64,000 bases of DNA from an uncultured Gammaproteobacteria bacterium (lineage in GTDB: Bacteria; Patescibacteriota; Microgenomatia; UBA10105; UBA927): NCBI GenBank assembly GCA_964596355.1, contig CAZQTD010000004.1, positions 1,183-65,182 of the forward strand, written 5' to 3'. Below are positions 46,692 through 64,000 of the stretch, in pieces. The position numbers were made by a program, and so were the translations under genes. Within the stretch, counting starts at the first letter, position 1. Each line of letters starts with the position of its first letter. A model generated the notes under the pieces. It did not search any database and was not told where the DNA came from. It worked only from the letters and a program-made list of their open reading frames with translations.

Positions 46692-49600
46692 CTGTTTGTC
46701 CCCTCGGAACGAGTATCAACTTCAACCAACAGCCGCTTGAGCTGCAGATCTTCAAAGATAAACACTTCTCTGTTATACCTATTAAACACGTGTGGATAGC
46801 TGAATGCTTCCTTTGCGCTTGAAACTGAAATCGTCGTAAATGTAAACGGATTTAATCGAAATACGTGCCACAGCGCGTCGCCCAAACCGGTGGGAAATAT
46901 CCAAGCGCGCCCGTATCGTATCGGCGTATTCACGAATATGAATCCCCTGTGGTTTGACAGCGGAAAATATTCTTTCCGCAGCTGCAGTATCGACTGCTGT
47001 GACACCCGGCTTGCCACAGCCCAGTCATCTTTGAGGCGAAACGATTCACGGTAATTCCAATATATAACGCTGACAATGATCATCAACGCAATCACTTTTA
47101 CATGGAGCGTCTCTTTCTCCCATATACGCTCAACGACGATCCCAAGCGCGATGCACAAAAATCCGGACGGGATAAACGCGTAGCGCTCCGCCATGCCGCC
47201 TAAGCCTGCATACGCGGCCAGCGACACAATGCAAAGGAGCAGAAAGACAGCAGGCGCCCGCATTTGACCAATAAATCGCCGCATTGCTCTGGCGACAATG
47301 ACAAAGCACGCCAAAACCAACACGCCGCCGCCTGCCACCAGCTGTTTATTTGTTCTAAAAGACGCGCGAAGGAACTCCCAGTGCTCAATGACTCTTGGCC
47401 CGCCGAATATGGCGGCAAGGTACCCCGAGGTATTTGCCAGGGCGTTGACAAACAGTGTTTCAATTTTATACCCGTAATCTCCAGAGGGAACTACAGCTCC
47501 GGCGCTCGTCCGCATCAACCAGTAAAGGGGCATAAGAAGGAGGAGCCCATGGTGCCATCGTCCTTTTTGTTGATATCGAAGGAGTCCCAAGAGCCATACA
47601 AGTAAAGGAGCAACCACCATGCCATCATACGAAAGCATGGAAACAAAAAGAAGAAGCGTTGCAAGCGGCAGGATGAGGCCTCTGATGCTCCTCCCCTCCT
47701 TCCAAAGCAACTGGTGACAATAAATGCTGCCAAAAAGCGCAACGAACGCCAGCATGCTGCTTTGGCCCGATATCCAGTACACGTTTTCGTGGTGAATCGA
47801 CAGTATCGCAAAAACCGCGCTACCGAGGAGGGCAAGCGGTCGACGCACCCCTTCATTGCTGGTAATTACGTAGATGAGGATGACGGAAAGCGATAATAGT
47901 ACCAGCGACATGAAATGGTAAGGCCCGGGCTTGAGCCAAAACAGCGAATACAACACAACATACCACAGCTTTGGAATAGGCCGGTAGAAAAACCCCTGCG
48001 CGCTTGTAAACAGCGTCGGGATTTGCTGGATGTTCGTCTCTGTAGCCCATTTGAGCCACGTAAAATCATCGGCAATAAAATACCACGGTAGTATGAACGC
48101 GAATATCGCCATCACACCGATCACAAGATAAAGAATAAGGGCAATCTGGTGCGTCAGCGTGCGTTTCAAAAGCTCACAATACTCGCGTATCGTCTGACCG
48201 TGCGGTCCAAGCGAGCCCAGCGCAATTCCGAGCATGAGCCAGAAGGAAAATGCGACCTTTGACGCCTCAAATACGTCAATCAGGATCGCGTTGCACAGCA
48301 AACCGGTTAATCCAGCGTACACGCCGATGGCAAACGATCTGGGAAGCCCGGTCACAATAGCTAACTGCCGAAAGAAAAACACGTACGCGGCAATAAAGAT
48401 GCCAAGGAACGCAATCGAGCCTGCAATCCCCGTTTCTCCCAGCATCCGCAGATAATCACCGTCAGCGGCAACAGAAAGAGTGGAAAATCCACTCCCCAGA
48501 AGGACGTCGCGCCTAAACGCTGTGAACGCCTTTGGCCACTGTCCCTGAAACCTTGTGGTAAGCGATATGTCATAAACAAACGCCTTTTGGATAAGGAAAC
48601 TCCCCGACACCGTTGCGATCTCCCCCGATCCTGTCGCGAGACTGCTTGCGGTGTAGTACTCAATGGCGTTAACATTATTGCGAGGCGATGAATCCGTATG
48701 AATGCCGATAAATTCGCTTCCTTTGGGTAAATCTTCATGCGCCGGCGACTCAATCTGTTCGACGAGTGCGCGTGAACCCTCCAGCTTGTCGAGCGTGCCG
48801 ATGGGTTTACCGCTTGATAAATCGACAACAACGTTTTCGTAACGGAATGTTTTATAAAACCGTTCCGATGCCTCGCCCACAAAATTCATGATTATAAAAC
48901 TCGCGATGATGACGGGAATGATAAGCACTCGCTTTTTCTGCCACACGAGCATTGCGCTTATCGCAATAAGGTACACGCCGAACGATACGCGCGACGCTGT
49001 CAAAAGAAGAAGAACAAGACCAAAAACCGCAAGAGTAAAAAAGACAAGCTTGTGCCACACGCGCTTCATCGCAAACACCATGCTCCCGAGAATCGGAATA
49101 ACCAACACAAGGTATGCCCCCAAATCGTAGTGTCCTCCAAACGTGGAAGGAATCCGCGCAGTCGGCGGAAGCCTAAGCGGAATGCCCTTGGCGAACTCCT
49201 CATTCATGGTGAGAAACGCCGGCAGTCCCAAAAACTTTTGTCCAAACCCGTACAAAATTATGAGAAGCACCGTCACGGCAATAACCCACACGGACGCACG
49301 AAAAATTCCGCGGTTGCTTTTTACCGCGTAATACCCGAGGAAAAAAAGGATCATGTATTCAATTCGCCGAAGAAAATGAAGGATTGCAAGATGCGGATGA
49401 AAATTTACGATATGTTTGCTGGTGGCAACGATAGAGACAATAACGACGACAACTCCCACCAGCCAATACGTCACGATCGGCCACGTAAGCGGCGTTGACG
49501 GCATCGTACGCGTACGGATCAATCGAACCGCAAATCCTGCCGCAACCAACGCGACGAGAAGGTCTTCAGCGCGGATGTACACCCATGTGTGGACGATGTC

Positions 49601-49699
49601 CACAATCGGGAGCTTGGGAAACAGCGGAATAAAAAAGAGGAAAAAAAGCGCGCTTACCGGAAGCAACCCGTCACTGATCCGACTGAAGAGCTTGTTCAT
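46688..49699 (-). CDS. fusion protein: O-antigen ligase/polymerase-like (Wzy_C) N-terminal half plus a second polytopic membrane domain
   Basis: 1003 aa, more than 20 predicted TM. A large extracytoplasmic loop precedes GSGFSTLSVAADGDYLRMLGETGIAGSIAFLGIF, a Wzy_C-type motif. The C-terminal 450 aa is a separate multi-TM domain of unknown family. Confidence 0.55.
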   Translation of the reverse strand: MNKLFSRISDGLLPVSALFFLFFIPLFPKLPIVDIVHTWVYIRAEDLLVALVAAGFAVRLIRTRTMPSTPLTWPIVTYWLVGVVVVIVSIVATSKHIVNFHPHLAILHFLRRIEYMILFFLGYYAVKSNRGIFRASVWVIAVTVLLIILYGFGQKFLGLPAFLTMNEEFAKGIPLRLPPTARIPSTFGGHYDLGAYLVLVIPILGSMVFAMKRVWHKLVFFTLAVFGLVLLLLTASRVSFGVYLIAISAMLVWQKKRVLIIPVIIASFIIMNFVGEASERFYKTFRYENVVVDLSSGKPIGTLDKLEGSRALVEQIESPAHEDLPKGSEFIGIHTDSSPRNNVNAIEYYTASSLATGSGEIATVSGSFLIQKAFVYDISLTTRFQGQWPKAFTAFRRDVLLGSGFSTLSVAADGDYLRMLGETGIAGSIAFLGIFIAAYVFFFRQLAIVTGLPRSFAIGVYAGLTGLLCNAILIDVFEASKVAFSFWLMLGIALGSLGPHGQTIREYCELLKRTLTHQIALILYLVIGVMAIFAFILPWYFIADDFTWLKWATETNIQQIPTLFTSAQGFFYRPIPKLWYVVLYSLFWLKPGPYHFMSLVLLSLSVILIYVITSNEGVRRPLALLGSAVFAILSIHHENVYWISGQSSMLAFVALFGSIYCHQLLWKEGRSIRGLILPLATLLLFVSMLSYDGMVVAPLLVWLLGLLRYQQKGRWHHGLLLLMPLYWLMRTSAGAVVPSGDYGYKIETLFVNALANTSGYLAAIFGGPRVIEHWEFLRASFRTNKQLVAGGGVLVLACFVIVARAMRRFIGQMRAPAVFLLLCIVSLAAYAGLGGMAERYAFIPSGFLCIALGIVVERIWEKETLHVKVIALMIIVSVIYWNYRESFRLKDDWAVASRVSQQSILQLRKEYFPLSNHRGFIFVNTPIRYGRAWIFPTGLGDALWHVFRLNPFTFTTISVSSAKEAFSYPHVFNRYNREVFIFEDLQLKRLLVEVDTRSEGTNR

Positions 49700-51187: not shown

Positions 51188-52339
51188 TTAACCATTCTTC
51201 ATACCCCCCACTTCTTCCAAGACGCGCAATGTCTGCGCGGCAGCTTTTTCCCACGTAAATTTCTTCGTTTGCGCAAGGCCTTCTGCGATGCGCCGTTTCC
51301 CCTGCATGAGGTTTCGCTCCCGCACCGACGTCAGAAGACCCTTGCAGATACTCGACGGACTAGCTGGATCCACATAGATCCCGGCCCTGCCTGCTATTTC
51401 CGGCAAACTTGAAACGTCACTGACGACCACGGGACACTTGTGCGCCATTGCTTCCAGAACCGGCAGTCCAAATCCTTCGTAAAGACTGGGAAGGGCAAAC
51501 GCAAGCGCGTGGTCGTAGAGAACCGATAATTCTGCGTCCGGTATGTAGTGCAGAAATTTTACCCTGTCAGCAACGCCATATGCCTTGGGAGCCGCGAGAA
51601 TGTCTTCATAAAGCCATCCTCTTTTTCCAACAATCACAAGATCAATGCTTCCAAACTTCTGCTTGTTCTCTTTAAGGAACAAAGAGAATGCTTTAATAAG
51701 CCGCGCAAAGTTTTTGCGCGGCTGAAGCGTCCCCACGGAAAGGATATAGTGATTACTGATATGGTAGCGCTCAACGACCGCGGTGCATGCTGGACGCTCA
51801 CCATTGGTTTTCATAGACATTCCCGGATACGTTACCACCACCTTCGTTTCCGGCACGTGGTACGCTTTGAGTATAGCACGTCTGGTAAACTCACTGATCG
51901 TCAGCACCTTTTGGGCTGTTTGTATGGAATACCTTGATCCCCGAGTGAGCTGATGCAGGTCTTTTGATCGAAACAAGCGCGGGAAGAAAAGGAACGAAAG
52001 GTCCATAATCGATATGACGCGAGGAATACTGACAAATCTGGGTGCATAATGCGTCGGAGAAAATATAACATCCGCTTTAGGCGTATCTCGTATAAGCGCA
52101 AGCGGTAATCCCAAAAAGGTCCACAGCTTTGCCGGTTGCACCACCTTGTATTGCCACCAGTCCGTTTCGCGTGGCATATCGTGCAAGGGTGAGTTGGGGA
52201 GGTAAACTCGAAAAACGTGTTCTGGCTTGCTTTGTGAACCCACACATCCATACACAGAACACAAGATGTTATACGCGTACTGTCCTATACCAACGCGGTT
52301 TACTTGATTTGCTTCATACCCGTCAATCGCAATGATCAT
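51188..52339 (-). CDS. GT4 (GT-B) glycosyltransferase
   Basis: 383 aa. N-domain IIAIDGYEANQVNRVGIGQYAYN. C-domain EGFGLPVLEAMAHKCPVV. Confidence 0.8.
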   Translation of the reverse strand: MIIAIDGYEANQVNRVGIGQYAYNILCSVYGCVGSQSKPEHVFRVYLPNSPLHDMPRETDWWQYKVVQPAKLWTFLGLPLALIRDTPKADVIFSPTHYAPRFVSIPRVISIMDLSFLFFPRLFRSKDLHQLTRGSRYSIQTAQKVLTISEFTRRAILKAYHVPETKVVVTYPGMSMKTNGERPACTAVVERYHISNHYILSVGTLQPRKNFARLIKAFSLFLKENKQKFGSIDLVIVGKRGWLYEDILAAPKAYGVADRVKFLHYIPDAELSVLYDHALAFALPSLYEGFGLPVLEAMAHKCPVVVSDVSSLPEIAGRAGIYVDPASPSSICKGLLTSVRERNLMQGKRRIAEGLAQTKKFTWEKAAAQTLRVLEEVGGMKNG

Positions 52340-52908
52340 ATCCCCGGATATATTACATGGACCTTTGATGCATCGATGTGTAATGCGTCAACGACGTCGC
52401 GTTTTGATGCCTGCGAATCGCACAATATGCTGCTGCACTCGCGGCTGACCCACTTCATACGGCGTTTTTGCACGGCCAAAATCTTTTTGTGAAAGCTTGC
52501 CGGAAACCGCAGCACGGCAAGATCGTGAATGGTCGTAACTCCTTTGGCATTAGCAAGTGGTGGCTGCGTCCAGTCGCTGCTCCAAAAGACATCCACGCGG
52601 CCGATAAACCATTCAATAGGTATCACGTGCAGGATATTCCATAAAACATCAAGAACTGTCGGCGGAATCGGTACAACCTTAAGACGGACTCTGCGCGAAT
52701 TAGCTTTGAGTGTTCGATAATACGAAAAGTACTCGTTGCGCCTTCGAAGCGATGAGGCAAATAGCACGTAGTCATTGTTTGTGTCAATGGCAACAAGCGT
52801 CGCTACCAGCTTTTTAACATAGGTTGCCACGCCGGTGCCTTCATACACAATCTGACTAATGTCTATTCCTATTCTCATACGTACCCCTCCGGATTCTCCT
52901 TGTGCCAC
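52336..52908 (-). CDS. GT4 N-terminal domain only (truncated glycosyltransferase, possible gene remnant)
   Basis: 190 aa. IGIDISQIVYEGTGVATYVKKL...TIHDLAVL...KVHVIYPGI ends exactly where the GT4 C-terminal catalytic domain should begin. It overlaps the start of the next complete GT4 by 4 nt (ATGA). Confidence 0.45.
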   Translation of the reverse strand: MAQGESGGVRMRIGIDISQIVYEGTGVATYVKKLVATLVAIDTNNDYVLFASSLRRRNEYFSYYRTLKANSRRVRLKVVPIPPTVLDVLWNILHVIPIEWFIGRVDVFWSSDWTQPPLANAKGVTTIHDLAVLRFPASFHKKILAVQKRRMKWVSRECSSILCDSQASKRDVVDALHIDASKVHVIYPGI

Positions 52909-53861
52909 TTCCAGGCTGTTTCAATAATCGTTGTGATGTCGGAGTATTGAGGTTTCCAGCCAAATTCTTTTTTCAATCTCGTCGGATCTGCTATGAGTGT
53001 ATGCGGGTCTCCTGCTCTGGGGCCCGCTTCTTTAACCAAAAAATCTACTCCGGTTATCCGTTTTACTTGAGCGACAACTTGACGGTTTGTCACGCCGGTG
53101 CCTGTTGCAACGTTATAGACGTCAGACGGATGGCCATGCATCAGCGCGTCAAGCGCCAAAAGGTGCGCGTCGCACAAATCCTCTACATGGATATAGTCTC
53201 GCACGCACGTCCCGTCGCTTGTGGGATACGTCGTGCCGTAGAGCATAAATTCCTTTTGCTTGCCGAGCGCGGTCTTGATGGCAAGGGGAATAATGTGTGT
53301 TTCAGGATTATGCGCTTCTCCGTGAGCGCCGTCAAGAGAAGCTCCTGCCGCATTAAAGTAGCGCAAACTTATGCTTCTAACATTGAAACTGCGATCAAAT
53401 ACCTTCAACAGCTCCTCAAAGCACCATTTTGAAAGCCCGTAGGGGCTTTCAGGATTCTTCGCATGATCCTCCGGTATAGGAACCTTCTGCGGATTGCCGT
53501 ACACGGCCGCTGTCGACGAAAAGATAATGGCATTAACATTGTGAGCGACCATGGACTGAAGGAGCGCAATAGGGCTAATAACGTTATTTTGAAAATATTT
53601 TTTGGGATCACGCACTGATTCCTCTACGAGCAAATAGCCGGCAAAGTGAATAACCGCATCAACCGTTGACGTGGAAAAAATTGAATCAATGAGCTGTTTG
53701 TCTGCGGTGTTGCCCACAACAAGCTTCGCCTTGGATGGTACGGCCTGTTTGTGTCCGTACTCCATCGAATCCAGAATGATCACCGTATCACCGCGGGCAA
53801 CAAGCATCCTGGCCATGTGGCTTCCGATGTAACCAGCTCCTCCTGTAACTAAAATCGTCAT
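52875..53861 (-). CDS. galE: UDP-glucose 4-epimerase
   Basis: 328 aa. MTILVTGGAGYIGSH, the YxxxK region in an SDR extended fold, and GalE-like C-terminal domain. Confidence 0.85.
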   Translation of the reverse strand: MTILVTGGAGYIGSHMARMLVARGDTVIILDSMEYGHKQAVPSKAKLVVGNTADKQLIDSIFSTSTVDAVIHFAGYLLVEESVRDPKKYFQNNVISPIALLQSMVAHNVNAIIFSSTAAVYGNPQKVPIPEDHAKNPESPYGLSKWCFEELLKVFDRSFNVRSISLRYFNAAGASLDGAHGEAHNPETHIIPLAIKTALGKQKEFMLYGTTYPTSDGTCVRDYIHVEDLCDAHLLALDALMHGHPSDVYNVATGTGVTNRQVVAQVKRITGVDFLVKEAGPRAGDPHTLIADPTRLKKEFGWKPQYSDITTIIETAWKWHKENPEGYV

Positions 53862-54097
53862 ACGCTACCGCGGGTCATCCGCCGCCCTGCAGCGATTTGC
53901 CAGAGAACGAATACCAAGAAAAACGAAGCAGCGTACCACGTTAGGCGCGTGGCGGTAAAAAATATCCATGCAGCGAAAAGCGGCGCCGAAAAAGCAAGGC
54001 TTACTAGCCCGGCATACACAAACAACCGAGGTTTCTTGCCGACGATCAGTACGATGGTGCTGATGATAAAAGCTATGTCCTGAAGTTTCATAATCAT
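53858..54097 (-). CDS. small 2-3 TM membrane protein of unknown function
   Basis: 79 aa. Hydrophobic segments IAFIISTIVLIV, LVSLAFSAPLFAAWIFF and AASFFLVFVLWQIAA. Sits between galE and the UXS gene. Confidence 0.4.
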   Translation of the reverse strand: MIMKLQDIAFIISTIVLIVGKKPRLFVYAGLVSLAFSAPLFAAWIFFTATRLTWYAASFFLVFVLWQIAAGRRMTRGSV

Positions 54098-55059
54098 AAA
54101 ACCTTTCGGTAATACTCGATGGTTTTTGTCAGCCCGTCATCGACAGATATCTTTGGCTCCCAGCCAAGCAGTTTTTTGGCTTTTGCAATGTTGGGTCGCC
54201 GCTTCGTCGGATCATCTTCAGGCAACGTGCCGTAAACTATCTCCGAGGTTGATCGTGCCATCGACGTAATTTTTTCCGCAAGGTCTATAACCCGATACTC
54301 CTCTGGATTCCCCAGATTTATGACTTCTCCTTTGGCGCAATCGGCAAACAGCAGTTTCACAATGCCGTCCACAAGATCAGAAACGTAACAAAACGACCGC
54401 GTCTGCGAGCCATCGCCGTACACGGTGATTGGTACACCTTCCAACGCTTGGTTTATAAAATTGGAAATGACCCGGCCGTCGGTTTTACGCATCCTGGGAC
54501 CATACGTATTAAATATCCTCATAATTCGGCAATCCAGATCGTACTTTCGTACATAGACCATCGTCATTGCTTCGCCAAATCGCTTGGACTCATCGTAGCA
54601 CGAACGCTTACCGTTTGGGTTAACGTTTCCCCAATACGCTTCCCTCTGCGGGTGCTCCTTGGGATCGCCGTACACCTCGCTCGTTGAAGCGTAGACGAAC
54701 CTCGCTTTCGTATTTTTGGCAAGCTCCAGCATGTTGATCGTCCCCAGCGAATTGACTCTCGCTGTTTCCTCCGGATACTTCTGGTAGTCAATGACGGACG
54801 CGGGAGAAGCCAAATGCAAAATGTATGACACATTGTTCCATTGTTCCATTGTTTCATTGTCAAAAGGCAAGGAAACATCGTGATTGATAAATGTAAAATT
54901 TGGATTCTTCTGTGCCTCCTTGAGGTTGTCACGGCTGCCGGTAATGAAGTTGTCTATCGCAACAACGCGATACTCCTGTGCAAGAAGGGCATCCACAACG
55001 TGTGATCCGATAAAACCCGCACCGCCGGTCACGATTGCTATTTTCATATCCATAGTCAT
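54094..55059 (-). CDS. UDP-glucuronate decarboxylase (UDP-xylose synthase) family SDR
   Basis: 321 aa. IAIVTGGAGFIGSHVVD, DNFITGS...NPNFTFINHDV and CYDESKRFGEAM are UXS hallmarks. Confidence 0.8.
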   Translation of the reverse strand: MTMDMKIAIVTGGAGFIGSHVVDALLAQEYRVVAIDNFITGSRDNLKEAQKNPNFTFINHDVSLPFDNETMEQWNNVSYILHLASPASVIDYQKYPEETARVNSLGTINMLELAKNTKARFVYASTSEVYGDPKEHPQREAYWGNVNPNGKRSCYDESKRFGEAMTMVYVRKYDLDCRIMRIFNTYGPRMRKTDGRVISNFINQALEGVPITVYGDGSQTRSFCYVSDLVDGIVKLLFADCAKGEVINLGNPEEYRVIDLAEKITSMARSTSEIVYGTLPEDDPTKRRPNIAKAKKLLGWEPKISVDDGLTKTIEYYRKVL

Positions 55060-55068
55060 TCTATCAAA

Positions 55069-56937
55069 TTACCGTACGCTAAACACCGTGTGCTTCTTAT
55101 CTTCGTACACGCGTGGGTACATCGCTTCCAGCGCGTCAACATCTACGGTGTACGGAAAATCAGTCTTTTCCCACCTCGGAACCACCACGTATGAAATGCC
55201 AATAGTTTTCGCCGCAACCGCGTCGCCGCCATAGACGCGCCGGACAGTGGGCGAACGGTCAGCCGCTCCCACGTTGCCAAAGAATCCGTAGAAGTTCTTC
55301 CTTCCGGCAATGACGACCGGATCGATCATATCCGCATACGATACAAACACGGCATCCGTTGGGGTATGATCCTTAATCCATGAAATCAGAGGCGCTGTAT
55401 CGGTTGCAACCAACGGGTACGCAAACTCATTTTTTATGACCATAAGATCCATTACACCAGAAGCTGTGAGAATAAACACCGCCAAGACGGCAATCGCTTG
55501 CATGATGCGCGATTTATTCTGCCACAACCAGCCTATCCCGACAGCGGCAACCGCGTTGGTGCCGATGATGAGAAACGACAAAAACTTCTGATCAAATCCG
55601 CGCGCCATGGCGCCTGCAAACACGCACTCCACAATAAAAAGAATGATAAAAGGCCATAGGTTGCGCCGCAGCAAGCGCGGCAGTACAATTATTCCGAGAA
55701 CAGCAACCAGCGGCAGTATTCCGAGATTGTGCCAGAAATACGACAACGCACTCCATCGTGGTATCGCGGTAGCTCCTGAAGAATTCCATCCGGTCAGACC
55801 CAGCATAAACGCTGGAACATCCTCTAAAAACGATACATATGGCACCAATGCCGCGCCCGTCACAACCACCACCACAGCAATAAACACCACCAGCCACTTC
55901 CACTTCTTGTGACATGCGCAGAGAAGTCCAAGCGACGCCGCGGTGACTGCAAAAACTCCCATATTCCAAAGAAAAAGAACACCTGCTATCACCGCATGGA
56001 GCGCAAAGGGCACAACGGACATCTTCTTTTCATCCACGAAGCGCGCCAGCACAATTATAAGAAATAGCCCCAGCGCGGCGGCAAACGCAAGGTGACGCTG
56101 ATTTACATAATTATTGAGCGTCATGAAAATCGAAATCACCGATCCGTCAAACGGCCCGGCAAACGGGTACGTCGGCAATGTCCAGATAGAGCGGATCAAT
56201 GACAGAGTAACACCTTTTTGAATAACCATGTGCCAAAACGAAAGCGTACTGTGCGTGATCGTCAAAAGGACGGCAACCCAGCCGACGACTGCCTTTTGCT
56301 TCGCAAGCATCTGCGGCAGGTAATAGACGACAATAAGGAGCGACGCGAACGATAGCGCGCTTGGGATATTCATTGCCCACACAATCGGCACGCCGAAATA
56401 TTCCCATATGGCGACAAAAAAATAAAAAGAGAAATGGTACAAAAACGGCAGTCCTGCCTGAAAAGGAGACGCAAACGGAATGTTGCCTCCCCATGAAAAT
56501 GAACGGACAATGCCAAGCGCGTGTCCAAAATCAAAGACGTTGTTGCTTCCGACGAATAATTGACCTGCCTCTCCGGCTCGAAAGGTTTTCGTCATGATCC
56601 ATGCGCTACATGCAAAAGAAAACACCACCATGGCCTTGTCACTCATTGAGAGATTGCCGTATCGAGCTAATTTCACATCCTTCGCAAGATACCGTGCGGT
56701 CAATACGGTTAGGATATAAAGAATCACGCCCCACGCAATGGGTTCGCGGGAAGAAGAAGCAGCGCACGCAAATACATACGTTGCCGGCACCCCGACGCCA
56801 ATGCCCGCCAACATCGAGCCGACGCGTGCCAGAAGCGCTGGCAATGAAGAATACCACTGCGCAACGATCATCAAGCCCGTCACATACAATGCAATAATGT
56901 ATGCGGCCAGAATAAAACTGTTGACTATGAGCGGCAT
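55069..56937 (-). CDS. polytopic membrane protein, unknown family (GT-C-like architecture)
   Basis: 622 aa, about 14 TM, with a roughly 120-aa C-terminal soluble domain. No recognisable motif. Confidence 0.45.
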   Translation of the reverse strand: MPLIVNSFILAAYIIALYVTGLMIVAQWYSSLPALLARVGSMLAGIGVGVPATYVFACAASSSREPIAWGVILYILTVLTARYLAKDVKLARYGNLSMSDKAMVVFSFACSAWIMTKTFRAGEAGQLFVGSNNVFDFGHALGIVRSFSWGGNIPFASPFQAGLPFLYHFSFYFFVAIWEYFGVPIVWAMNIPSALSFASLLIVVYYLPQMLAKQKAVVGWVAVLLTITHSTLSFWHMVIQKGVTLSLIRSIWTLPTYPFAGPFDGSVISIFMTLNNYVNQRHLAFAAALGLFLIIVLARFVDEKKMSVVPFALHAVIAGVLFLWNMGVFAVTAASLGLLCACHKKWKWLVVFIAVVVVVTGAALVPYVSFLEDVPAFMLGLTGWNSSGATAIPRWSALSYFWHNLGILPLVAVLGIIVLPRLLRRNLWPFIILFIVECVFAGAMARGFDQKFLSFLIIGTNAVAAVGIGWLWQNKSRIMQAIAVLAVFILTASGVMDLMVIKNEFAYPLVATDTAPLISWIKDHTPTDAVFVSYADMIDPVVIAGRKNFYGFFGNVGAADRSPTVRRVYGGDAVAAKTIGISYVVVPRWEKTDFPYTVDVDALEAMYPRVYEDKKHTVFSVR

Positions 56938-56938
56938 A

Positions 56939-58780
56939 TTATGTTCTTCGACATTTCAAACCCATAAGTGTACCGATCACAGCAAGCAGCGATGCCGCGC
57001 TGATATAAACGCCAATGGTCGCCCACTTGTCCTGTCTGACAGCTATCGCAGGAGTTTCTTCTTTCATGGTCCATTGAGTATTTTTGAAAACCGCAACATC
57101 TCCATAGCGATGATCTTCGATGAGCTTTGTTTTCCTCAATGCAAGTATCAATGAGTCGCGCTCCTTTGGATTAAAACGATAATCTGTAAGGAACATCCGC
57201 TTCTCCACATCTGTTGGCACGATTACATACCCGATGCCCGAATCGTCAAGCGTTTTCATAAAATCAGGTTTTTGCGTCTTTTCAATGATTGCCGATATCG
57301 ACGCGTTGTCAAACAACTGGTTAGACGTAAGCAAAGGGTGCGTTCCGGACCAAAAGGCAAATGCGTCTTCTCGGGGAATCCACAGCGTGCGGGACGGCTT
57401 GAGATCCGAAACAAGCATATCTTTCAAACGGACATACTCATCGGTAAGACGAAGCGGCCGAACGTTTCCCGCCACCTGACCTGTAAAAAGAGCGCGGAGA
57501 GTAAACAGCCAAAACACGAAAAAACCGGCATAAAGGAGTGCGTAAACCGCATTGCGTATGTTTTTGTGCCTGACGCGTGATGCGCGATACGCGACGCATA
57601 TCCGTTGACCTGCCTGATGAAGCGTGAACGGAATAAGCACCGAGTAACCAATTGCTGTGAATGCGTAGAACTTCGTCGGGTCGCGAAACAGGATAAATCC
57701 CGGGATGTGTTCAAACATGAACTGGAATATGCCGCCGAACGGTTCTTGTACTCCTTTGGCTAAAAACGCGCCCACAAGCGAAAGGAGGGCGAAATAAAGA
57801 ACGTGTTTTTTTTCAACTTGAAATATATTTTGTATATTTGCTATTTGACGTTTCCTGTAAGAAACAGCAAGAAGTGAACTATACGCGAGTATGGGCAACA
57901 TGAGGAATTCCGGCTGGAGAAAATACACTTTCCCGAACAGGTTTTCCGGCCAATTCGGGTGAAGCAGACTCAAGGAATGGGAAAAATCCGCAACGCTTAA
58001 AAACGTAAGCATGCCGGGGTTGGTAAATTCTTCTCCCAAAGATGACGCTCCTGCCCGCGTGAGGATCGCCGGCAGTATCCAAAACATGTGGATCGACAAT
58101 GCGACGAAAAGCGGGATTCCAAAGGTTGAAAGCATTATGTATAACGTATTGCGCATGTTCTCGTGACCAATACCTGCCTGACCCAAGTTGCGCCGAAGGA
58201 ATCCGTGGTACGCAACACTCACCATGCTATACAACAATAGTGCGCCCAGTATAAGATATGCGAATCGGAGGTCAAAAGCGATGAATAATGACAATAATAA
58301 ACCATTCTGCAGCGCATACCTGATACCTGATGCCTGATTCCAACTGCCAGTGTCAGCATCGCCGTGCCCGTCGACTAAATGAATAAACCGCCGCAAGACA
58401 AGCGGGGTCACGCTATATGCAAGTGCAACGCCGATTTGTCCTCCGGCAAATAAAAGCAGAATGTATGTATTTGTCGTATAGATCACTGAAGCAACAACTG
58501 CGGCAGCTTTACGTTTCAATACATGCCATCCAAGCGTGTAGGACGAACAGAACGATAGTATAAAAACAGACGCCCACAAAAGTTTGTCGATTGTCCACCA
58601 CGAACATCCCACGGATGAGAGCGCTTTTACGACCAACTCATACGGATAATCAAACCATAGGCGAATAAGGGAAGAAGTGCCAAATCCGTACTCCGAATGC
58701 CACACACGAGGCATCCACGAAAGCCCCGCGAGTTGTTCGGCAAAATAAAATCCTGCGTCACCGCTTGCAAAATACCACAT
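56939..58780 (-). CDS. polytopic membrane protein, paralog of the 960-aa protein (YfhO/AftD-like GT-C candidate)
   Basis: 613 aa. Shares FEHIPGFILFRDPTKFYAF (compare RHMPGFAIFRSSFYKFAP in the 59826-62708 product) and a C-terminal soluble domain plus terminal TM. Confidence 0.5.
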   Translation of the reverse strand: MWYFASGDAGFYFAEQLAGLSWMPRVWHSEYGFGTSSLIRLWFDYPYELVVKALSSVGCSWWTIDKLLWASVFILSFCSSYTLGWHVLKRKAAAVVASVIYTTNTYILLLFAGGQIGVALAYSVTPLVLRRFIHLVDGHGDADTGSWNQASGIRYALQNGLLLSLFIAFDLRFAYLILGALLLYSMVSVAYHGFLRRNLGQAGIGHENMRNTLYIMLSTFGIPLFVALSIHMFWILPAILTRAGASSLGEEFTNPGMLTFLSVADFSHSLSLLHPNWPENLFGKVYFLQPEFLMLPILAYSSLLAVSYRKRQIANIQNIFQVEKKHVLYFALLSLVGAFLAKGVQEPFGGIFQFMFEHIPGFILFRDPTKFYAFTAIGYSVLIPFTLHQAGQRICVAYRASRVRHKNIRNAVYALLYAGFFVFWLFTLRALFTGQVAGNVRPLRLTDEYVRLKDMLVSDLKPSRTLWIPREDAFAFWSGTHPLLTSNQLFDNASISAIIEKTQKPDFMKTLDDSGIGYVIVPTDVEKRMFLTDYRFNPKERDSLILALRKTKLIEDHRYGDVAVFKNTQWTMKEETPAIAVRQDKWATIGVYISAASLLAVIGTLMGLKCRRT

Positions 58781-58784
58781 ATTG

Positions 58785-59744
58785 TCACGTCACCTTGGGA
58801 TAGACAAGCTTCTCGTTTCGGATGATGAAGGAAATTCCGGCGAAATTACCCTTAAGATACGCAAGCATCCAGTGCGCTTTTTGCAGGATAGAAACATTCC
58901 CCCGATACCATATCGCCTTATACCAATAAAACAGCATAAATACCCAAATCCAGATGAGAACAATCCCGAGCAATTGGATCTTTGTTGAATACAACGAATG
59001 AAAGATGATTCTGTTTCTTGCAAATACGTACGGCAGTCTGGCATCGTTCATAAAATGATCCATATAATCACCGGTGTCATGGTAGATAATCGCGTCTCTC
59101 ACTACCTTAACCGTATACCCTGCCTTTCTAATCCGATAAGCTAGGTCACTTTCTTCATACATGATGCCGAATTTTTCGCAAAACGATATCCCATGCGTCT
59201 TTATAACGCTTGCTCGCACCATGAAGGCGTTTGGCACATCCGGAGTTTCCCAATACTCATCATTCGCATACATTTGAAGATTATTCGGCAAATATGTCTT
59301 TGTCGTCCACATGTTTCTGATAGTCTGGATCCAAAATACCGTTTTCCTATCACGGAAACTTTTGTTGACGAGTCCTAATTCCCCTATTCCATCATCGCTC
59401 TCAAAGATACGAACCAAGTGCGCAATCGCATGGGCATCCAACACATTATCATCATCAACATAAAAAAGATATGCTCCTCTCGCTACTCTCGTACCAACGT
59501 TTCTGGCACCGGCTGCAAACAGATTTCTTTTATTTCTCACCACGCGCAACCGTCGGTAGCTGGCAAACGTCTTTTTAATCGCTTGATACGTGTTATCTGT
59601 CGACGCATCGTCAACGACAATTACTTCAATATGCTTGTATGTACTTTTCATAATGCTCTTTAGCAAACGTATCACCATTGTTTTGCGGTTATGTGTTGGA
59701 ATAATTATAGAAACCAGCGGTAATGTGGTATTGTCAGTTTTCAT
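58785..59744 (-). CDS. GT2 glycosyltransferase with C-terminal membrane anchor (polyprenyl-phosphate sugar synthase, GtrB/CsbB-like candidate)
   Basis: 319 aa. LPLVSIIIPTHNRKTMV and VIVVDDASTDNT. C-terminal hydrophobic LGIVLIWIWVFMLFYWYKAIW. Confidence 0.75.
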   Translation of the reverse strand: MKTDNTTLPLVSIIIPTHNRKTMVIRLLKSIMKSTYKHIEVIVVDDASTDNTYQAIKKTFASYRRLRVVRNKRNLFAAGARNVGTRVARGAYLFYVDDDNVLDAHAIAHLVRIFESDDGIGELGLVNKSFRDRKTVFWIQTIRNMWTTKTYLPNNLQMYANDEYWETPDVPNAFMVRASVIKTHGISFCEKFGIMYEESDLAYRIRKAGYTVKVVRDAIIYHDTGDYMDHFMNDARLPYVFARNRIIFHSLYSTKIQLLGIVLIWIWVFMLFYWYKAIWYRGNVSILQKAHWMLAYLKGNFAGISFIIRNEKLVYPKVT

Positions 59745-59825
59745 GACGCTTTATCGTGGTTTTGTATCCTCATATCCATTATCTACTCTCTCAATCGTCA
59801 GCATGCGTACGGTTGTAACATAGCG

Positions 59826-62708
59826 TTACCCGGTGACCCTCTTTCGCACACTCCCTGTATACCACACGGCAGCGACGATGAGGCTCGTTATTGATAACAT
59901 ATTGCCATATGTGCCATTTGTCTGCGTCGTATACCGTATCTCAAAGGCACCGCGGGTATTGCGTGGCACAAGCCAGCCGTTCGCAAACCCATTCGCTTCA
60001 TAATGATCAGTAATAATATGACGCTTCCCATTTGTCGATGTAAACGACAATTGCCAGCGAGGATCATACCGCTGATTAAGCACAATCGCCGATGGATCAG
60101 AAATCGAACGCACGATATTTCCCTCATACCGAGTGGGGGAAATCCTTACAAAGGATAACGGCACCATTCCACCTTCTGGTGCGTATTCATTTCTAAGAAA
60201 TATGTAGGGAGCCACCATTTGTCCATTGCGCGCAAGCTCAATCGTGTGAAACCCTTCTTCAAGCGTCACAATATGCAATGGTGCCAACACACCATCGACA
60301 ATAATTCGATCAAGCGGATTAGATCCAATAATCCGATAACGATCCGATTGAGGAATGGTAACGATATACCGAAACGATGAATCGTCCGACATATAGATAT
60401 TCTTCATCACCTCATTCTTCAAGGGACGAATAATCGACGAAACATCGTGGAATATAACAGTTCCTGCTGTTAATCGTTCGATAGCCGCTATATACGCGTA
60501 TAATCGATTCGCATAGATAACCTGCATCCGTCCAGACAGTTTGCGGTAGAGTTCATTCATCTGTTCTAAAACGACTGACATGTTGCTCATCTGCTCCTTA
60601 TTGCCCGAATGAACTGCCAACGATATGATGGACACGACATTCGATAATTTCTCATCGATCAGCTCGCCATACGATTGTTCATGCTTCTTCATACGAGCAA
60701 AACGCCTGCCAAGATGTTTGACGAATGTCTTGCGTTGATCATCGACCGGCGGTAAATAGATGCTTGAAACTAATGTATTAAATTCATCCGGATTGCACAT
60801 CATGCATTCAGCGCCTATCGCTGTGGGCAGTCGAGCATCTGCTGGCGACTCGACTCTAATTGTTGCTGTGTCGCTCGCACATATGACATCTCCCCTCGCC
60901 GATCCGGTCACCTGTATGGGATTGCGGACAATCGAAATCATCGGCCGTATCGAAGCAGTATTACGGTATAGTTTCCACGGACCCGACTGGGAAACAAGAC
61001 TCATTCCTTCCATGGATGCAAGGGTTTGTTCATACTCGACAAGGGAATGACGTTTTCCCATAGCTTCGGACAATGCGACATCACCCCGCCAGAGTACGTG
61101 TGTGACGCCAGCCAATGACGCAAGCTCATGGAACCCTTCCATATCACGATCATACAAATGCTGATAAAGAAGTGCTGTTATGGCATCGTCATTGGCGTCT
61201 CCGGCGAGAAATGACCGATTCGTCATAATTCTCGGCAATATATCCGCACTATAAAACCCCCATGTGTAGGCATCCATAGGCAAGGTAATAAATCCGGGAT
61301 CAAGGTCCGGGAACACCAAGATCCTGTCATCCATCGTTGTCTTTTTCTCTATTGCGTGTTTCATCTGATTAACATACCGAGGAATTGCTACACGCGTTCG
61401 AAATAAACCGCTTATAGTAAAGCTCTCCGATGAAAAAAACGGGTAATGGTATGCCAAAATGCCACTGATGCACATGCTCCAGACGATCGTTCTTATGTAT
61501 TTCTTCTTAACATACGTATGGATAAACAGCGCCATAAAGTAGCCGAAAAGCACCGTAACAGAAAACCAAACGGTTGGAGCGAATTTATAAAAACTGGACC
61601 GAAATATCGCAAATCCAGGCATGTGGCGCATGAGCAGAAGGTATATGACTCCTGTCGGTGGATGAGATCCCGCGGTAAAAAAAATCCCAACAGCAAGTAG
61701 CGCAGTAAGAAATAGGAGTATGAAGCGACGCGACGAGTCTATTCCAAACCGTATAACCCCCAACGCACTGACACCAGCAGGTATAAGGCTTGCCAGAACA
61801 AGAACAATGTTTGACTCATAGACGCCAGCGTAAGGATGCGATGGATTTCCATGCCAATCAGGAAACCCCTGCAGCCGTATGATATTCAGAAATGATGCAT
61901 TGCGGCTAAAAGCTTTTTCCCATTCGATAAGTCCGCCTATTCCTCCCTGCGCAGCTACAGATGATCCAAACGATGCGTGTGCATACGCAATAAGCGGTAC
62001 AATCCAATAGGCATTAAAAAGAAGAAATGACACAGCAAACAACGCATATGAACCAAGAAGCCGAACTGTTCCTGCCAGTCCCCGTTGGCGGAATACGAAG
62101 GCAGAAAACATGATTACGGCAAGTCCAATGGCTATAATCGTTGCGCCATACAGGGGGATGGATCCACCACCGTTCCATACTGCATAAAGAAGTCCAAACG
62201 CTATCGCTGTCCTCACCGGTTGTGCGGCATGAAACGCCTGCCGATACATAAGGAGAATTGCGATCGGAAGCGCGGCATAGAGCGAAAATTTTGCGCGCTC
62301 GGCATTGAGCCATCCGTTGAGAATAAAAAAATTATACATATAATATATCGAGGAAAAAATTCTAAAAAACCGAAAATGAGATTCAGGAAACATATTCCGA
62401 AGAAATATATACATTGACAGGCCTATCAGCATAAACCATCCAACAAACACCGTCGTTTGCGCCACAGGAAGTGAACCGGTAACCTGCGACACGATGGCCT
62501 CCGGAAGCTGTAGGACTGCAAACGCACGGTAGATGGTCCAGTCAATGCCGTAATTGACCGTAGGGTTCCAGCTATGAAGAAGGCTTGTGATGTGCGCTAT
62601 GCCATTTAAGCGGAATCCGGAATCATACCCGACAATCGAATACCCGCCGATGAGCCACACGATCGGAACAAGGGAGAGAAAAAACAGAAATATGATGTCT
62701 ATTATCAT
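59826..62708 (-). CDS. giant polytopic membrane protein with about 500-aa extracytoplasmic domain and C-terminal anchor (YfhO/AftD-like GT-C candidate)
   Basis: 960 aa. About 13 N-terminal TM, motif MPGFAIFRSSFYKF, a large soluble domain ending HYEANGFANGWLVP, and a terminal TM (MLSITSLIVAAVWY). Confidence 0.55.
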   Translation of the reverse strand: MIIDIIFLFFLSLVPIVWLIGGYSIVGYDSGFRLNGIAHITSLLHSWNPTVNYGIDWTIYRAFAVLQLPEAIVSQVTGSLPVAQTTVFVGWFMLIGLSMYIFLRNMFPESHFRFFRIFSSIYYMYNFFILNGWLNAERAKFSLYAALPIAILLMYRQAFHAAQPVRTAIAFGLLYAVWNGGGSIPLYGATIIAIGLAVIMFSAFVFRQRGLAGTVRLLGSYALFAVSFLLFNAYWIVPLIAYAHASFGSSVAAQGGIGGLIEWEKAFSRNASFLNIIRLQGFPDWHGNPSHPYAGVYESNIVLVLASLIPAGVSALGVIRFGIDSSRRFILLFLTALLAVGIFFTAGSHPPTGVIYLLLMRHMPGFAIFRSSFYKFAPTVWFSVTVLFGYFMALFIHTYVKKKYIRTIVWSMCISGILAYHYPFFSSESFTISGLFRTRVAIPRYVNQMKHAIEKKTTMDDRILVFPDLDPGFITLPMDAYTWGFYSADILPRIMTNRSFLAGDANDDAITALLYQHLYDRDMEGFHELASLAGVTHVLWRGDVALSEAMGKRHSLVEYEQTLASMEGMSLVSQSGPWKLYRNTASIRPMISIVRNPIQVTGSARGDVICASDTATIRVESPADARLPTAIGAECMMCNPDEFNTLVSSIYLPPVDDQRKTFVKHLGRRFARMKKHEQSYGELIDEKLSNVVSIISLAVHSGNKEQMSNMSVVLEQMNELYRKLSGRMQVIYANRLYAYIAAIERLTAGTVIFHDVSSIIRPLKNEVMKNIYMSDDSSFRYIVTIPQSDRYRIIGSNPLDRIIVDGVLAPLHIVTLEEGFHTIELARNGQMVAPYIFLRNEYAPEGGMVPLSFVRISPTRYEGNIVRSISDPSAIVLNQRYDPRWQLSFTSTNGKRHIITDHYEANGFANGWLVPRNTRGAFEIRYTTQTNGTYGNMLSITSLIVAAVWYTGSVRKRVTG

Positions 62709-63043
62709 TTAGGAAACCTCTGTGCGCGCCAAACTTCCCTGCCGTACTGTACAAGACCAAAAACGAAAAAAAGATAAAACCATTCTGCGAAGCGTTCAGT
62801 CGTCCGCGATGGTCCTGTGGGTATATATGATAACCCTGTATAGAGAAGAAATAACAGAGAAAGGATAAAAGATGTTCTACTTGAAGATAATTGAATAAGA
62901 GTAACAATGCCATATAAAAAAAATGCAATAAAAAAGGGTAAATCTGAATACCTAAATACCTCGGCTAAATCGGCAAATACCACAATGGCTATTAGAAAAA
63001 GCGTGAATAAAGAAAGGAGGATGAGTGGTTTACTTTTCTTCAT
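62705..63043 (-). CDS. small 3-4 TM membrane protein (candidate GtrA-like lipid-linked sugar flippase, unverified)
   Basis: 112 aa with four hydrophobic segments. Overlaps both flanking genes by a few nt, consistent with translational coupling. Confidence 0.4.
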   Translation of the reverse strand: MKKSKPLILLSLFTLFLIAIVVFADLAEVFRYSDLPFFIAFFLYGIVTLIQLSSSRTSFILSLLFLLYTGLSYIPTGPSRTTERFAEWFYLFFVFGLVQYGREVWRAQRFPK

Positions 63044-64000
63044 GGCGTTTGTTTGTTACAATGCGCACACCGCGTACGACAACAAATAAAAATACGGCGC
63101 CAGAAATTACTATTCCAATATACAGATAGTTTTGGCTTTTCAAATATATAGTTCCATGCACTACGTCTGCTTGAATTCCCTCGGGATCAATAATCCATCC
63201 ATTCGCGTATCCGTTTACCAAAATGTGGTTTATGGTTACTCCTTGCCATGCCGGCTCAAGAGAAAAATCCCATGTTGAATGAAAATCATTTGACAGAATG
63301 AGAAGAAATGGCGTCTTTCTTCCTCTCATATCGATATCCACCTCAAAGCGTACCGGAGATCTTTTTCTATATGATAGAGATGGACTTTCTGAATCGTTTC
63401 CGTCGCAAGTCAAATAGTCACATGCAGCATCGTCAACGTAGGCAGATCGGTAAGAATCTTTCAGTGCTTCTTGCTGATCAGAATATATGCTGTCGGGAAT
63501 GTATATATGTGGACGAACCACAGCATCTTCAAATTCATATATCTCGTAAAATCCTTGTGCATATATCTTCTTCACCGGCAGTAAAGCCAAAAACTTCTCA
63601 TAAGAATTCTGATCTTTAATAATTGGAAGCTGTTCCTTAGACGAATAGGTCATGCCCGGATATACGTACGGATAACCAGGAAAATCATCTATAATGCGCG
63701 AATCTGAATTGCGGAATATATACCGAACGTTAAGAAGCGAAAGAAGCTGGACAAAACGATCGATATCCTCTCTGCGAAGGACATCGAATATAAGCCGTTC
63801 ATACGGACCGAATGTCCAAAAACCGGTAAAATCAGGTTTTCCGGCCACTAAAGAAACCGTCGATATGCCAACAAACGCACCTCCCTGCTTACCATATGCT
63901 ATTTGAAAATATGGAAACGTAAGCGGCAAGGTAAGTACTTTTCCGTCCTGAGGCAGATTTTTGAGGTACGATAAAGACGTGATGAGATCAGGATCTATCT
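63030..64000 (-). CDS. C-terminal part of a further large membrane glycosyl-transfer-like protein (5' end outside window)
   Basis: The frame stays open to the window edge; the apparent start at 63929 is a TTG. The C-terminus ILVNGYANGWIIDP plus terminal TM is homologous to the C-terminus of the 960-aa protein. Confidence 0.5.
   Translation of the reverse strand, partial: IDPDLITSLSYLKNLPQDGKVLTLPLTFPYFQIAYGKQGGAFVGISTVSLVAGKPDFTGFWTFGPYERLIFDVLRREDIDRFVQLLSLLNVRYIFRNSDSRIIDDFPGYPYVYPGMTYSSKEQLPIIKDQNSYEKFLALLPVKKIYAQGFYEIYEFEDAVVRPHIYIPDSIYSDQQEALKDSYRSAYVDDAACDYLTCDGNDSESPSLSYRKRSPVRFEVDIDMRGRKTPFLLILSNDFHSTWDFSLEPAWQGVTINHILVNGYANGWIIDPEGIQADVVHGTIYLKSQNYLYIGIVISGAVFLFVVVRGVRIVTNKRHEEK

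Follow-up and report, generated by a model that had tools for sequence, protein, structure and literature searches.

The window analysed here is a stretch of 64,000 nucleotides (nt) of contig CAZQTD010000004.1, and its last part, from position 56939 onwards, carries three genes for large membrane proteins, referred to below as paralog A (960 amino acids, aa), paralog B (613 aa) and paralog C (cut by the edge of the window). All genes of this region lie on the minus strand. The initial annotation, made from the sequence alone, had described the three as tandem related genes that share a PGFxxFR motif and an NG[FY]ANGW module, and had compared them with glycosyltransferases of the YfhO and AftD types, both belonging to the GT-C class. 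The peptides quoted in it were all recovered at their positions on the minus strand. The relatedness of the three genes was upheld; their strict adjacency was not, since a gene for a 112-aa protein and a GT2 glycosyltransferase gene are located in between. The three genes and their main features are the following:

63030 to beyond 64000 (codons 63998-63030), minus strand: paralog C, last 322 codons, running off the window (translation)
59826-62708, minus strand: paralog A, 960 aa (open reading frame (ORF) call, AlphaFold2 (AF2) model, Foldseek)
62610-62630, minus strand: GYDSGFR of paralog A, first extracytoplasmic loop after the first transmembrane (TM) helix, TM1, with D29 (family alignment)
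61599-61619, minus strand: PGFAIFR of paralog A, residues 364-370, followed by the invariant K375 (960-family alignment)
60405-60734, minus strand: helical-bundle insert of paralog A, residues about 659-768 (model)
59931-60377, minus strand: C-terminal beta-sandwich of paralog A, residues about 778-926, holding NGFANGW (model)
59832-59927, minus strand: C-terminal TM helix of paralog A, residues 928-959 (model; positional match to AftD TM12)
56939-58780, minus strand: paralog B, 613 aa (ORF call, AF2 model, Foldseek)
58745-58765, minus strand: SGDAGFY loop at the extreme N-terminus of paralog B, with D8 (hhalign; counterpart of the D29 loop of the 960-aa protein)
57683-57703, minus strand: PGFILFR of paralog B, residues 360-366, followed by the invariant K370 (family alignment)

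The AF2 model of paralog A (pLDDT 89, pTM 0.85) begins with about 11 TM helices, and the models bore out the predicted plan, in which a multi-TM GT-C core at the N-terminus is followed by an extracytoplasmic region and the chain is anchored at its C-terminus. The outer region had been described as large and beta-rich; in the 960-aa model it is mixed instead, comprising an alpha/beta domain (residues about 422-640), the helical bundle and the beta-sandwich, with the terminal helix at the end of the chain. PF18915 (DUF5667) matches the helical-bundle region in a few homologs of paralog A, which are Patescibacteria proteins of about 950-1180 aa. The PGF-motif peptide of this product, RHMPGFAIFRSSFYKFAP, is encoded on the minus strand, and its PGFAIFR forms a loop and a short helix on the outer face of the model, between the helices 353-362 and 372-399. 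P364, G365, F366, R370 and K375 are invariant in the 960-family alignment of 38 sequences, and so is D29 (38/38). The second quoted peptide, HYEANGFANGWLVP, is found at 59973-59993 (NGFANGW) just ahead of the terminal helix; W885, N910 and W912 are invariant in this part of the family and G907 is nearly so. A Cys-x-x-Cys pair in the extracytoplasmic region, C635 and C638 (residues 634-638; 60795-60809, minus strand), is also invariant in 38/38 sequences and may be a disulfide or a metal site.

Paralog B, modelled with similar confidence scores (pLDDT 87.2, pTM 0.88), has a GT-C core from which TM1 is missing; a single alpha/beta domain lies in the periplasm, and the chain closes with a TM helix (56945-57049). 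Its PGF-motif peptide on the minus strand is FEHIPGFILFRDPTKFYAF. The protein begins MWYFASGD, with the conserved D8 as the last of these residues, and the model shows no helix ahead of the loop; an Asp occupies this position in 97% of the 40 short-family members. A GT-C core lacking TM1, the helix ahead of the catalytic loop in GT-C enzymes, is unusual. There was no start codon in the open frame upstream of the 613-aa gene, and the idea that the gene is a read-through extension of the gene upstream was dropped because the frames differ among loci and the topology would be wrong. The first helix is absent from at least 17 short-family relatives, all of the closest ones included, and an N-terminal hydrophobic helix of 25-40 residues is present in the Levybacteria-type members. 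Among the related loci, TM1-less relatives of the short paralog were noted in L002-L011, L015, L023, L030 and L055.

In the cut gene, paralog C, the peptide ILVNGYANGWIIDP lies at 63195-63215 (NGYANGW) and is followed by a terminal helix at 63075-63128. The full-length product of this gene was not among the proteins that the last homolog search returned. Its full-length relatives in other genomes, of 744-763 aa or about 1200-1280 aa, carry TM1, DLGGDxxRLYF, LPGFxMFR, NGYANxWxIxPED and then the terminal helix. Since these relatives carry the PGF motif, it is predicted also for the part of paralog C beyond the window; the N-terminus of this protein is reconstructed from relatives of 42-45% identity and would be expected to follow their plan.

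The common ancestry of the three products was examined by pairwise and profile alignment. BLASTP aligned the 613-aa and 960-aa proteins with E=3e-8 across 119 aa around the PGF motif, and the cut gene with the C-terminus of the 960-aa protein with E=3e-6. Family alignments for the 613-aa and 960-aa proteins were then built from database homologs and compared by hhalign. The two families matched with a probability of 99.3% (E=1.3e-20, 469 columns), residues 8-545 of the 613-aa protein being paired with residues 29-564 of the 960-aa protein. The cut gene matched the 960 family over the C-terminal module, i.e. its last about 100 residues, with E=3.5e-15, and when its full-length relatives were used instead, the match reached E=3.5e-50 over 900 columns. 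The claim of significant similarity among the three products was in this way substantiated (E of 1.3e-20 and 3.5e-50), and SIMILARITIES was judged real. The three products are diverged paralogs of one family.

Chance or compositional likeness of unrelated hydrophobic proteins had to be weighed against this result, since spurious low-complexity matches do happen in membrane proteins, an example being a match of leukotriene C4 synthase to the PGF region. Three further membrane proteins of the same locus, of 622, 1003 and 481 aa, served as the comparison: by hhalign all of them were unrelated to the AftD-like family (probability <1%), so they were ruled out as additional paralogs. Because these multi-TM proteins show no relation, hydrophobic composition alone does not yield scores such as those above. 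Motif counts pointed in the same direction. Across 67 related loci, PGFxx[FY]R was found in 105/113 family members (49/51, 43/49 and 13/13 in the individual families), compared with 1/508 unrelated ORFs of at least 300 aa that served as the background, and the NG motif occurred in 0/508 of the latter. Together with the profile E-values and with AftD as the best match among PDB structures for both independent models (see below), these counts leave chance similarity a negligible probability, and it was ruled out.

The sharing of PGFxxFR was confirmed, but its placement after the TM bundle was not: the motif sits inside the bundle, where it occupies the loop that joins helices nine and ten of the model. 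In a joint alignment of the three families few positions are common to all. The best conserved among them are the first-loop Asp (D29/D8/D36) and the P-G-F-x-x-F-R block (364-370/360-366/347-353); the others are some Gly and Pro residues and an Asp of the soluble domain (D543/D524/D525). The pairing of D29 with D8 of the 613 family was obtained by hhalign as well as in the joint alignment, and the joint alignment adds D36 for the third family. At the position of the PGF block, proteins that score strongly on PF11847, the AftD family of Pfam, read P.FWIFREPF.KF or PGMWLLREPN.KL; the Arg of the block is general to the family, and 'PGF' itself is a local dialect. Shortly after the block, paralogs A and B and those PF11847 proteins retain a Lys that is mostly absent from paralog C.

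K39, D41, E251, K361 and D474 are essential residues of AftD. D41 is located in the same first loop, and K361 at the end of loop EL5 (residues 331-363) (bioRxiv 10.1101/2019.12.22.885152). D29 is a candidate catalytic Asp, corresponding to AftD D41 by position only, and R370/K375 may be the counterpart of AftD K361, holding the donor phosphate.

The family assignment was approached by profile searches and by structure comparison. Scans of the window proteins against Pfam and NCBIfam gave nothing above threshold, and the only named match was that of the 613-aa protein to MmpA. Among the homologs, PF11847 (GT-C_AftD, formerly DUF3367; gathering cut-off 26 bits) was matched by 6/38 long-family and 6/40 short-family proteins, i.e. 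12/78. Three close homologs of the 960-aa protein, P0026 (28.4 bits), P0052 (28.3 bits) and P0111 (32.3 bits), exceeded the cut-off; they are 32-34% identical to it, and the matched segment spans residues about 290-580, the PGF motif included. When the AF2 models were compared with PDB structures by Foldseek, AftD of M. abscessus came first in both cases: 6wby/6w98/6wbx for the 960-aa model (E about 1e-12, TMq 0.50-0.55; E=7.9e-13 and TMq 0.55 for the best) and 6w98_A for the 613-aa model (E=5.9e-6, TMq 0.55, rmsd 5.7 A). The matches that followed, to STT3, AglB, PglB, DPY19, AftA and ArnT, are all GT-C enzymes. The comparison with AftD made in the initial annotation found support in these searches and in the C-terminal module, which among PDB sequences hits AftD alone (see below).

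The comparison with YfhO fared differently. Enzymes of the YfhO family glycosylate teichoic acids of Firmicutes with undecaprenyl-phosphate sugars provided by GT2 enzymes of the CsbB/GtrB type. Their plan is similar, with a terminal helix after a multi-TM core and an outer domain; next door in the window there is also a gene for a GT2 whose tail is hydrophobic, and one of the 40 short-family homologs touches PF09586 (E=0.012). PF09586, however, found no match at E<=1 in the window proteins and none in the 38 long-family homologs, as against 12 matches, several of them above threshold, for PF11847; no YfhO was present among the top 50 listed Foldseek matches in the PDB, led by AftD, in a library that may hold no YfhO structure. 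That the proteins are GT-C enzymes of the YfhO type is considered very unlikely. PF10131, also proposed as a check, was never matched.

The NG[FY]ANGW motif, which had been thought not assignable to any named family, was traced to AftD. The strand carrying it is part of the last beta-sandwich before the C-terminal helix. A full-length profile of the 960 family searched against the PDB sequences had AftD as its top match (E=0.03), the weaker matches being helical proteins with no relation to it; when the profile was limited to the module, AftD was the sole match (E=0.13). In the alignment the module falls on AftD residues 1144-1270, immediately ahead of TM12, with ...NPGW... and VNGWQQGWVLP. 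As AftD is the top or only hit, the alignment is collinear and the whole-structure match agrees, this similarity carries weight, and the motif can be regarded as the version, in the Candidate Phyla Radiation, of the last beta-sandwich before AftD TM12, where AftD reads VNGWQQGW. The predicted anchor after the motif is present in paralogs A and C, both of which have the last periplasmic beta-sandwich and the TM12-like re-entry helix. A C-terminal NG module in all three proteins was not found: the 613-aa protein has the terminal helix, and the NG motif and the sandwich motif are absent.

The module profile retrieved 10,224 cluster representatives (50% identity) at E<=1e-3, and 5,024 when the threshold was tightened to E<=1e-10; the match almost always fell at the very end of the protein. 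Five module-bearing proteins were scored on PF11847: three, with the module at E<1e-27, reached 44.5-110.8 bits, one had 18 bits (below cut-off) and one gave no match. Because module-bearing proteins score on PF11847, the NG motif was taken as the signature that this branch of the AftD family carries at its C-terminus.

Two AftD-like units, each with a core and a C-terminal module, were seen in single ORFs, P0244 (1932 aa), P0243 (2606 aa) and P0241 (1705 aa), and another protein, P0359 (1910 aa), combines a PF11847 stretch at its N-terminus with two C-terminal modules and a Laminin_G_3 domain. Such double-unit ORFs may be natural fusions of tandem paralogs or artefacts of gene calling or assembly. 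Two units per chain are topologically possible as each unit has 12 helices, and the arrangement hints that AftD-like units act together.

Taken together, the three genes probably encode diverged paralogs of a GT-C membrane glycosyltransferase family of which mycobacterial AftD is the closest characterised relative. Several observations weigh against this assignment. The biochemical function of the three proteins is predicted from sequences and models. In the Pfam scan the window proteins lacked any PF11847 match at E<=1, and the sequence match of the module to AftD is marginal, deriving its weight from position and uniqueness. Profiles of the N-terminal core do not reach AftD among the PDB sequences. 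The N-terminal-only profile of the 960 family yielded just the chance match to leukotriene C4 synthase, a candidate that was rejected, the 613-family profile found AftD only at E=3.5 with no single stretch passing, the third-family profile found nothing, and phmmer with two window proteins gave nothing meaningful. AftD is composed of 11 GT-C helices, a soluble GT-C domain, three carbohydrate-binding modules (CBMs), a structural beta-sandwich, TM12 and a TM13-16 bundle that binds the acyl carrier protein (ACP) (bioRxiv 10.1101/2019.12.22.885152). Unlike AftD, the 960-aa model has no CBMs, in keeping with no CBM or F5/8 match in Pfam, and the ACP-binding four-helix bundle is absent, all three proteins ending within a few residues of the terminal helix. 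The correspondence of D29 with the essential AftD D41 is one of position, not of a residue-level superposition on AftD K39, D41, E251, K361 and D474. No synthase for a polyprenyl-phosphate sugar was identified with confidence in the locus, the adjacent 319-aa GT2 being weakly similar to GtrB (5ekp, E about 1e-3). Finally, the 613-aa copy has no TM1, and its best family match is MmpA, a protein without demonstrated catalytic activity.

The last point leads to another explanation, in which only the long copies, A and C, are enzymes and the 613-aa copy is a non-catalytic partner comparable to MmpA of Corynebacterineae. MmpA (NCgl2761/Rv0226c) is a short paralog of the AftD N-terminus with no known catalytic activity (PMC8698533), and mmpA is located in the same conserved locus as aftD in Mycobacteriales, with matching phenotypes (bioRxiv 10.64898/2026.07.31.741767). 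The match of the 613-aa protein to the MmpA model NF053599 (E=3.1e-9) covers residues 324-473, PGFILFR included. The loss of TM1, the position of the short copy directly behind a long paralog in most loci and the fused double-unit ORFs, as a hint at physical association, are all consistent with a partner role. The short copy might then bind the long copy and help to deliver or position the lipid-linked substrate, which is likewise a tentative proposal. However, the MmpA score is 36 bits as against a cut-off of 210, and MmpA itself may be a glycosyltransferase according to Foldseek (bioRxiv 10.64898/2026.07.31.741767). Furthermore, the first-loop Asp, the PGFxxFR...K block and the soluble-domain Asp are equally well conserved in the short family, and the keeping of these catalytic-type residues argues for retained activity. 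A non-catalytic 613-aa protein is therefore possible and at the same time doubtful.

The remaining genes of the locus were annotated to place the paralogs in context. The order of transcription is paralog C, 112 aa, 960 aa, GT2, 613 aa, 622 aa, UDP-xylose synthase (UXS), GalE. The neighbouring genes are the following:

62705-63043, minus strand: small membrane protein of 112 aa (ORF call, synteny)
58785-59744, minus strand: GT2 glycosyltransferase of 319 aa with a hydrophobic C-terminus (PF00535, E=1.3e-31)
55069-56937, minus strand: multi-TM protein of 622 aa (ORF call)
54094-55059, minus strand: UXS, i.e. UDP-glucuronate decarboxylase (human UXS1, E=2e-101)
52875-53861, minus strand: GalE (TIGR01179, 399 bits)

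The 112-aa gene shares 14 nt with the end of paralog C, stop included, and 4 nt with the start of paralog A; otherwise the genes are separated by gaps of just 1-81 nt, so they look like a single operon. The UXS assignment is firm, the next-best family scoring 1e-43, and GalE is above its NCBIfam cut-off. The UXS and GalE pair is kept beside GT-C genes in many Microgenomates loci, and its position next to the GT-C genes points to a supply of pentose for the pathway. Upstream in the window there are genes for a Bac_transf initiating phosphoglycosyl transferase, ManC, several GT4 and GT2 glycosyltransferases and an acetyltransferase, and the dcw cluster is located at about 10-33 kb. The region is a cell-envelope glycan synthesis locus beside the cell-division/cell-wall cluster of a Patescibacteria genome of the Microgenomates type. 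The Rfam scan of the window gave a single tRNA and nothing else.

Two of the neighbours had no convincing match in Pfam, NCBIfam or the PDB. A homolog of the 112-aa protein is encoded directly behind the paralog-C gene in 6/15 evaluable related loci; D34, T82-E83 and W88 are invariant, and the protein may be a subunit or a small flippase. The 622-aa gene begins 1 nt past the stop of the 613-aa gene and its orthologs follow the short paralog in 14/43 loci. Its invariant residues include F135-D136 in VFDFGHALG and an N275...H282 block. This protein, for which there were only weak hints of Dpy19 and DUF6798 (E about 0.002-0.02), could be another GT-C type enzyme.

A second large unannotated pair is encoded elsewhere in the window, a visibly multi-TM protein of 1003 aa (46688-49699, minus strand) and a protein of 481 aa (45246-46691, minus strand), with a GT2 gene before them; neither has a Pfam or NCBIfam match, and in about 20 related loci all three genes are found again downstream of those for the AftD-like proteins. 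A DUF2079 membrane protein of 485 aa (7720-9177, minus strand; E=1.8e-42) adjoins the isoleucyl-tRNA synthetase (IleRS) gene and the dcw cluster. A 190-aa ORF (52336-52908, minus strand) overlaps by 4 nt the start of a GT4 gene of 383 aa (51188-52339); by eye it resembles the N-terminal half of a GT4 and may be a split or decayed glycosyltransferase.

The related loci came from Patescibacteria in 66/67 cases, mostly from Microgenomates lineages (Gottesman-, Woese-, Levy- and Roizmanbacteria). The sole non-Patescibacteria match was in a metagenome-assembled genome (MAG) of Vulcanimicrobiota (L050, 1574-5683), which encodes a relative of 1370 aa with the C-terminal module. Many MAG records titled 'uncultured Gammaproteobacteria bacterium' (L003, L007, L008, L011, L012 and others) carry the Microgenomates-type gene order, and these labels look wrong. 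One recurring order of genes runs [third paralog]-[112 aa]-[960 type]-[613 type]-[622 aa]-[UXS]-[GalE]...[GT2]-[1003 aa]-[481 aa]. In 31/47 evaluable cases a 613-type gene comes within 4 kb behind the 960-type gene. The contig studied here was the only one among the loci examined with a GT2 gene between these two; relatives of this GT2 gene adjoin long paralogs elsewhere.

A possible mechanism can be outlined on the basis of the fold and the family, which suggest a polyprenyl-phosphate sugar as the probable donor, used on the extracytoplasmic face. Each enzyme would take a sugar from such a donor in the outer leaflet, with the first-loop Asp acting in catalysis at the membrane-periplasm interface and the Arg of the PGFxxFR...K block, together with the Lys in paralogs A and B, holding the phosphate of the donor. 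On the outside of the membrane this sugar would extend a growing glycan of the cell envelope. The glycan acceptor might be held by the outer domains, the beta-sandwich among them, which the terminal helix would pin to the membrane. The three paralogs could make three different linkages, as the Aft and Emb enzymes do in mycobacteria, and the neighbouring UXS and GalE-type 4-epimerase would suggest a supply line of pentose or hexose.

Several GT-C enzymes act as paralog pairs, e.g. EmbA-EmbB and Pmt1-Pmt2. A bolder proposal is that the long and short AftD-like copies form an obligate hetero-complex in which the TM1-less short copy is a specialised subunit, that AftD-MmpA is one case of an ancient and widespread two-subunit GT-C machine, and that in Microgenomates this machine builds a wall polymer containing pentose (xylose or arabinose) from polyprenyl-phosphate-pentose donors. 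This is a speculative proposal and is regarded as improbable; if it were true, these uncultured bacteria would have an arabinogalactan-like assembly line for extracytoplasmic glycans.

To our knowledge descriptions of AftD-type enzymes come almost entirely from the cell wall of mycobacteria, for which these enzymes are essential and serve as drug targets, and the literature searched contained no paper linking them with Patescibacteria. The data suggest that a stripped-down AftD type has radiated widely in this very large group of organisms, in which it was not expected. The long/short pair beside nucleotide-sugar genes and the dcw cluster offers a handle on the building of surface glycans in host-dependent uncultured bacteria, and thousands of 'hypothetical proteins' could be given names. 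The first-loop Asp, PGFxxFR...K and the NG[FY]ANGW sandwich constitute a candidate active-site signature for the branch, usable as a family model, and the proteins themselves, with 12 TM helices and neither CBMs nor the ACP bundle, are simpler variants from nature on which structure and function of AftD and MmpA could be studied.

Among the known systems the closest is AftD (arabinofuranosyltransferase D; Rv0236c/MAB AftD; 6w98, 6wbx, 6wby), which transfers arabinofuranose from decaprenyl-phospho-arabinose to arabinan. Like it, the window proteins have the GT-C fold, with about 11 TM helices at the N-terminus plus a soluble GT-C domain of the alpha/beta type, and a conserved basic motif closes the loop that leads to the tenth helix. 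A conserved Asp of the first outer loop corresponds by position, and paralogs A and C end in a final beta-sandwich with the ...NG..xGW... strand and a single TM helix after it. In contrast to AftD, which has about 1400 aa, they are of 613-960 aa, the 960-aa form has the DUF5667-like helical insert, and the host is an ultrasmall, uncultured member of Patescibacteria and not of Actinobacteria; we know of no arabinogalactan or decaprenyl-phospho-arabinose pathway in Patescibacteria.

Like MmpA, the 613-aa protein is a short paralog of the N-terminal AftD core; both have a single outer domain and are encoded by the side of a long paralog. MmpA is needed for the transport of trehalose mycolates, a pathway absent from Patescibacteria. 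It also differs in its predicted N-terminal signal sequence or first helix (PMC8698533), which the 613-aa protein does not have.

The other GT-C_A enzymes, i.e. STT3/PglB/AglB, DPY19, ArnT, AftA and EmbA/B/C, have the same fold class and the same presumed chemistry, with a lipid-phosphate-sugar donor used on the outer face, but they match the models more weakly (E 4e-6 to 0.8, TMq 0.27-0.42), with no match at the sequence level and with other outer domains and acceptors. The proteins of this locus are a divergent, architecturally reduced and very large branch of a known enzyme family and not a new kind of system.

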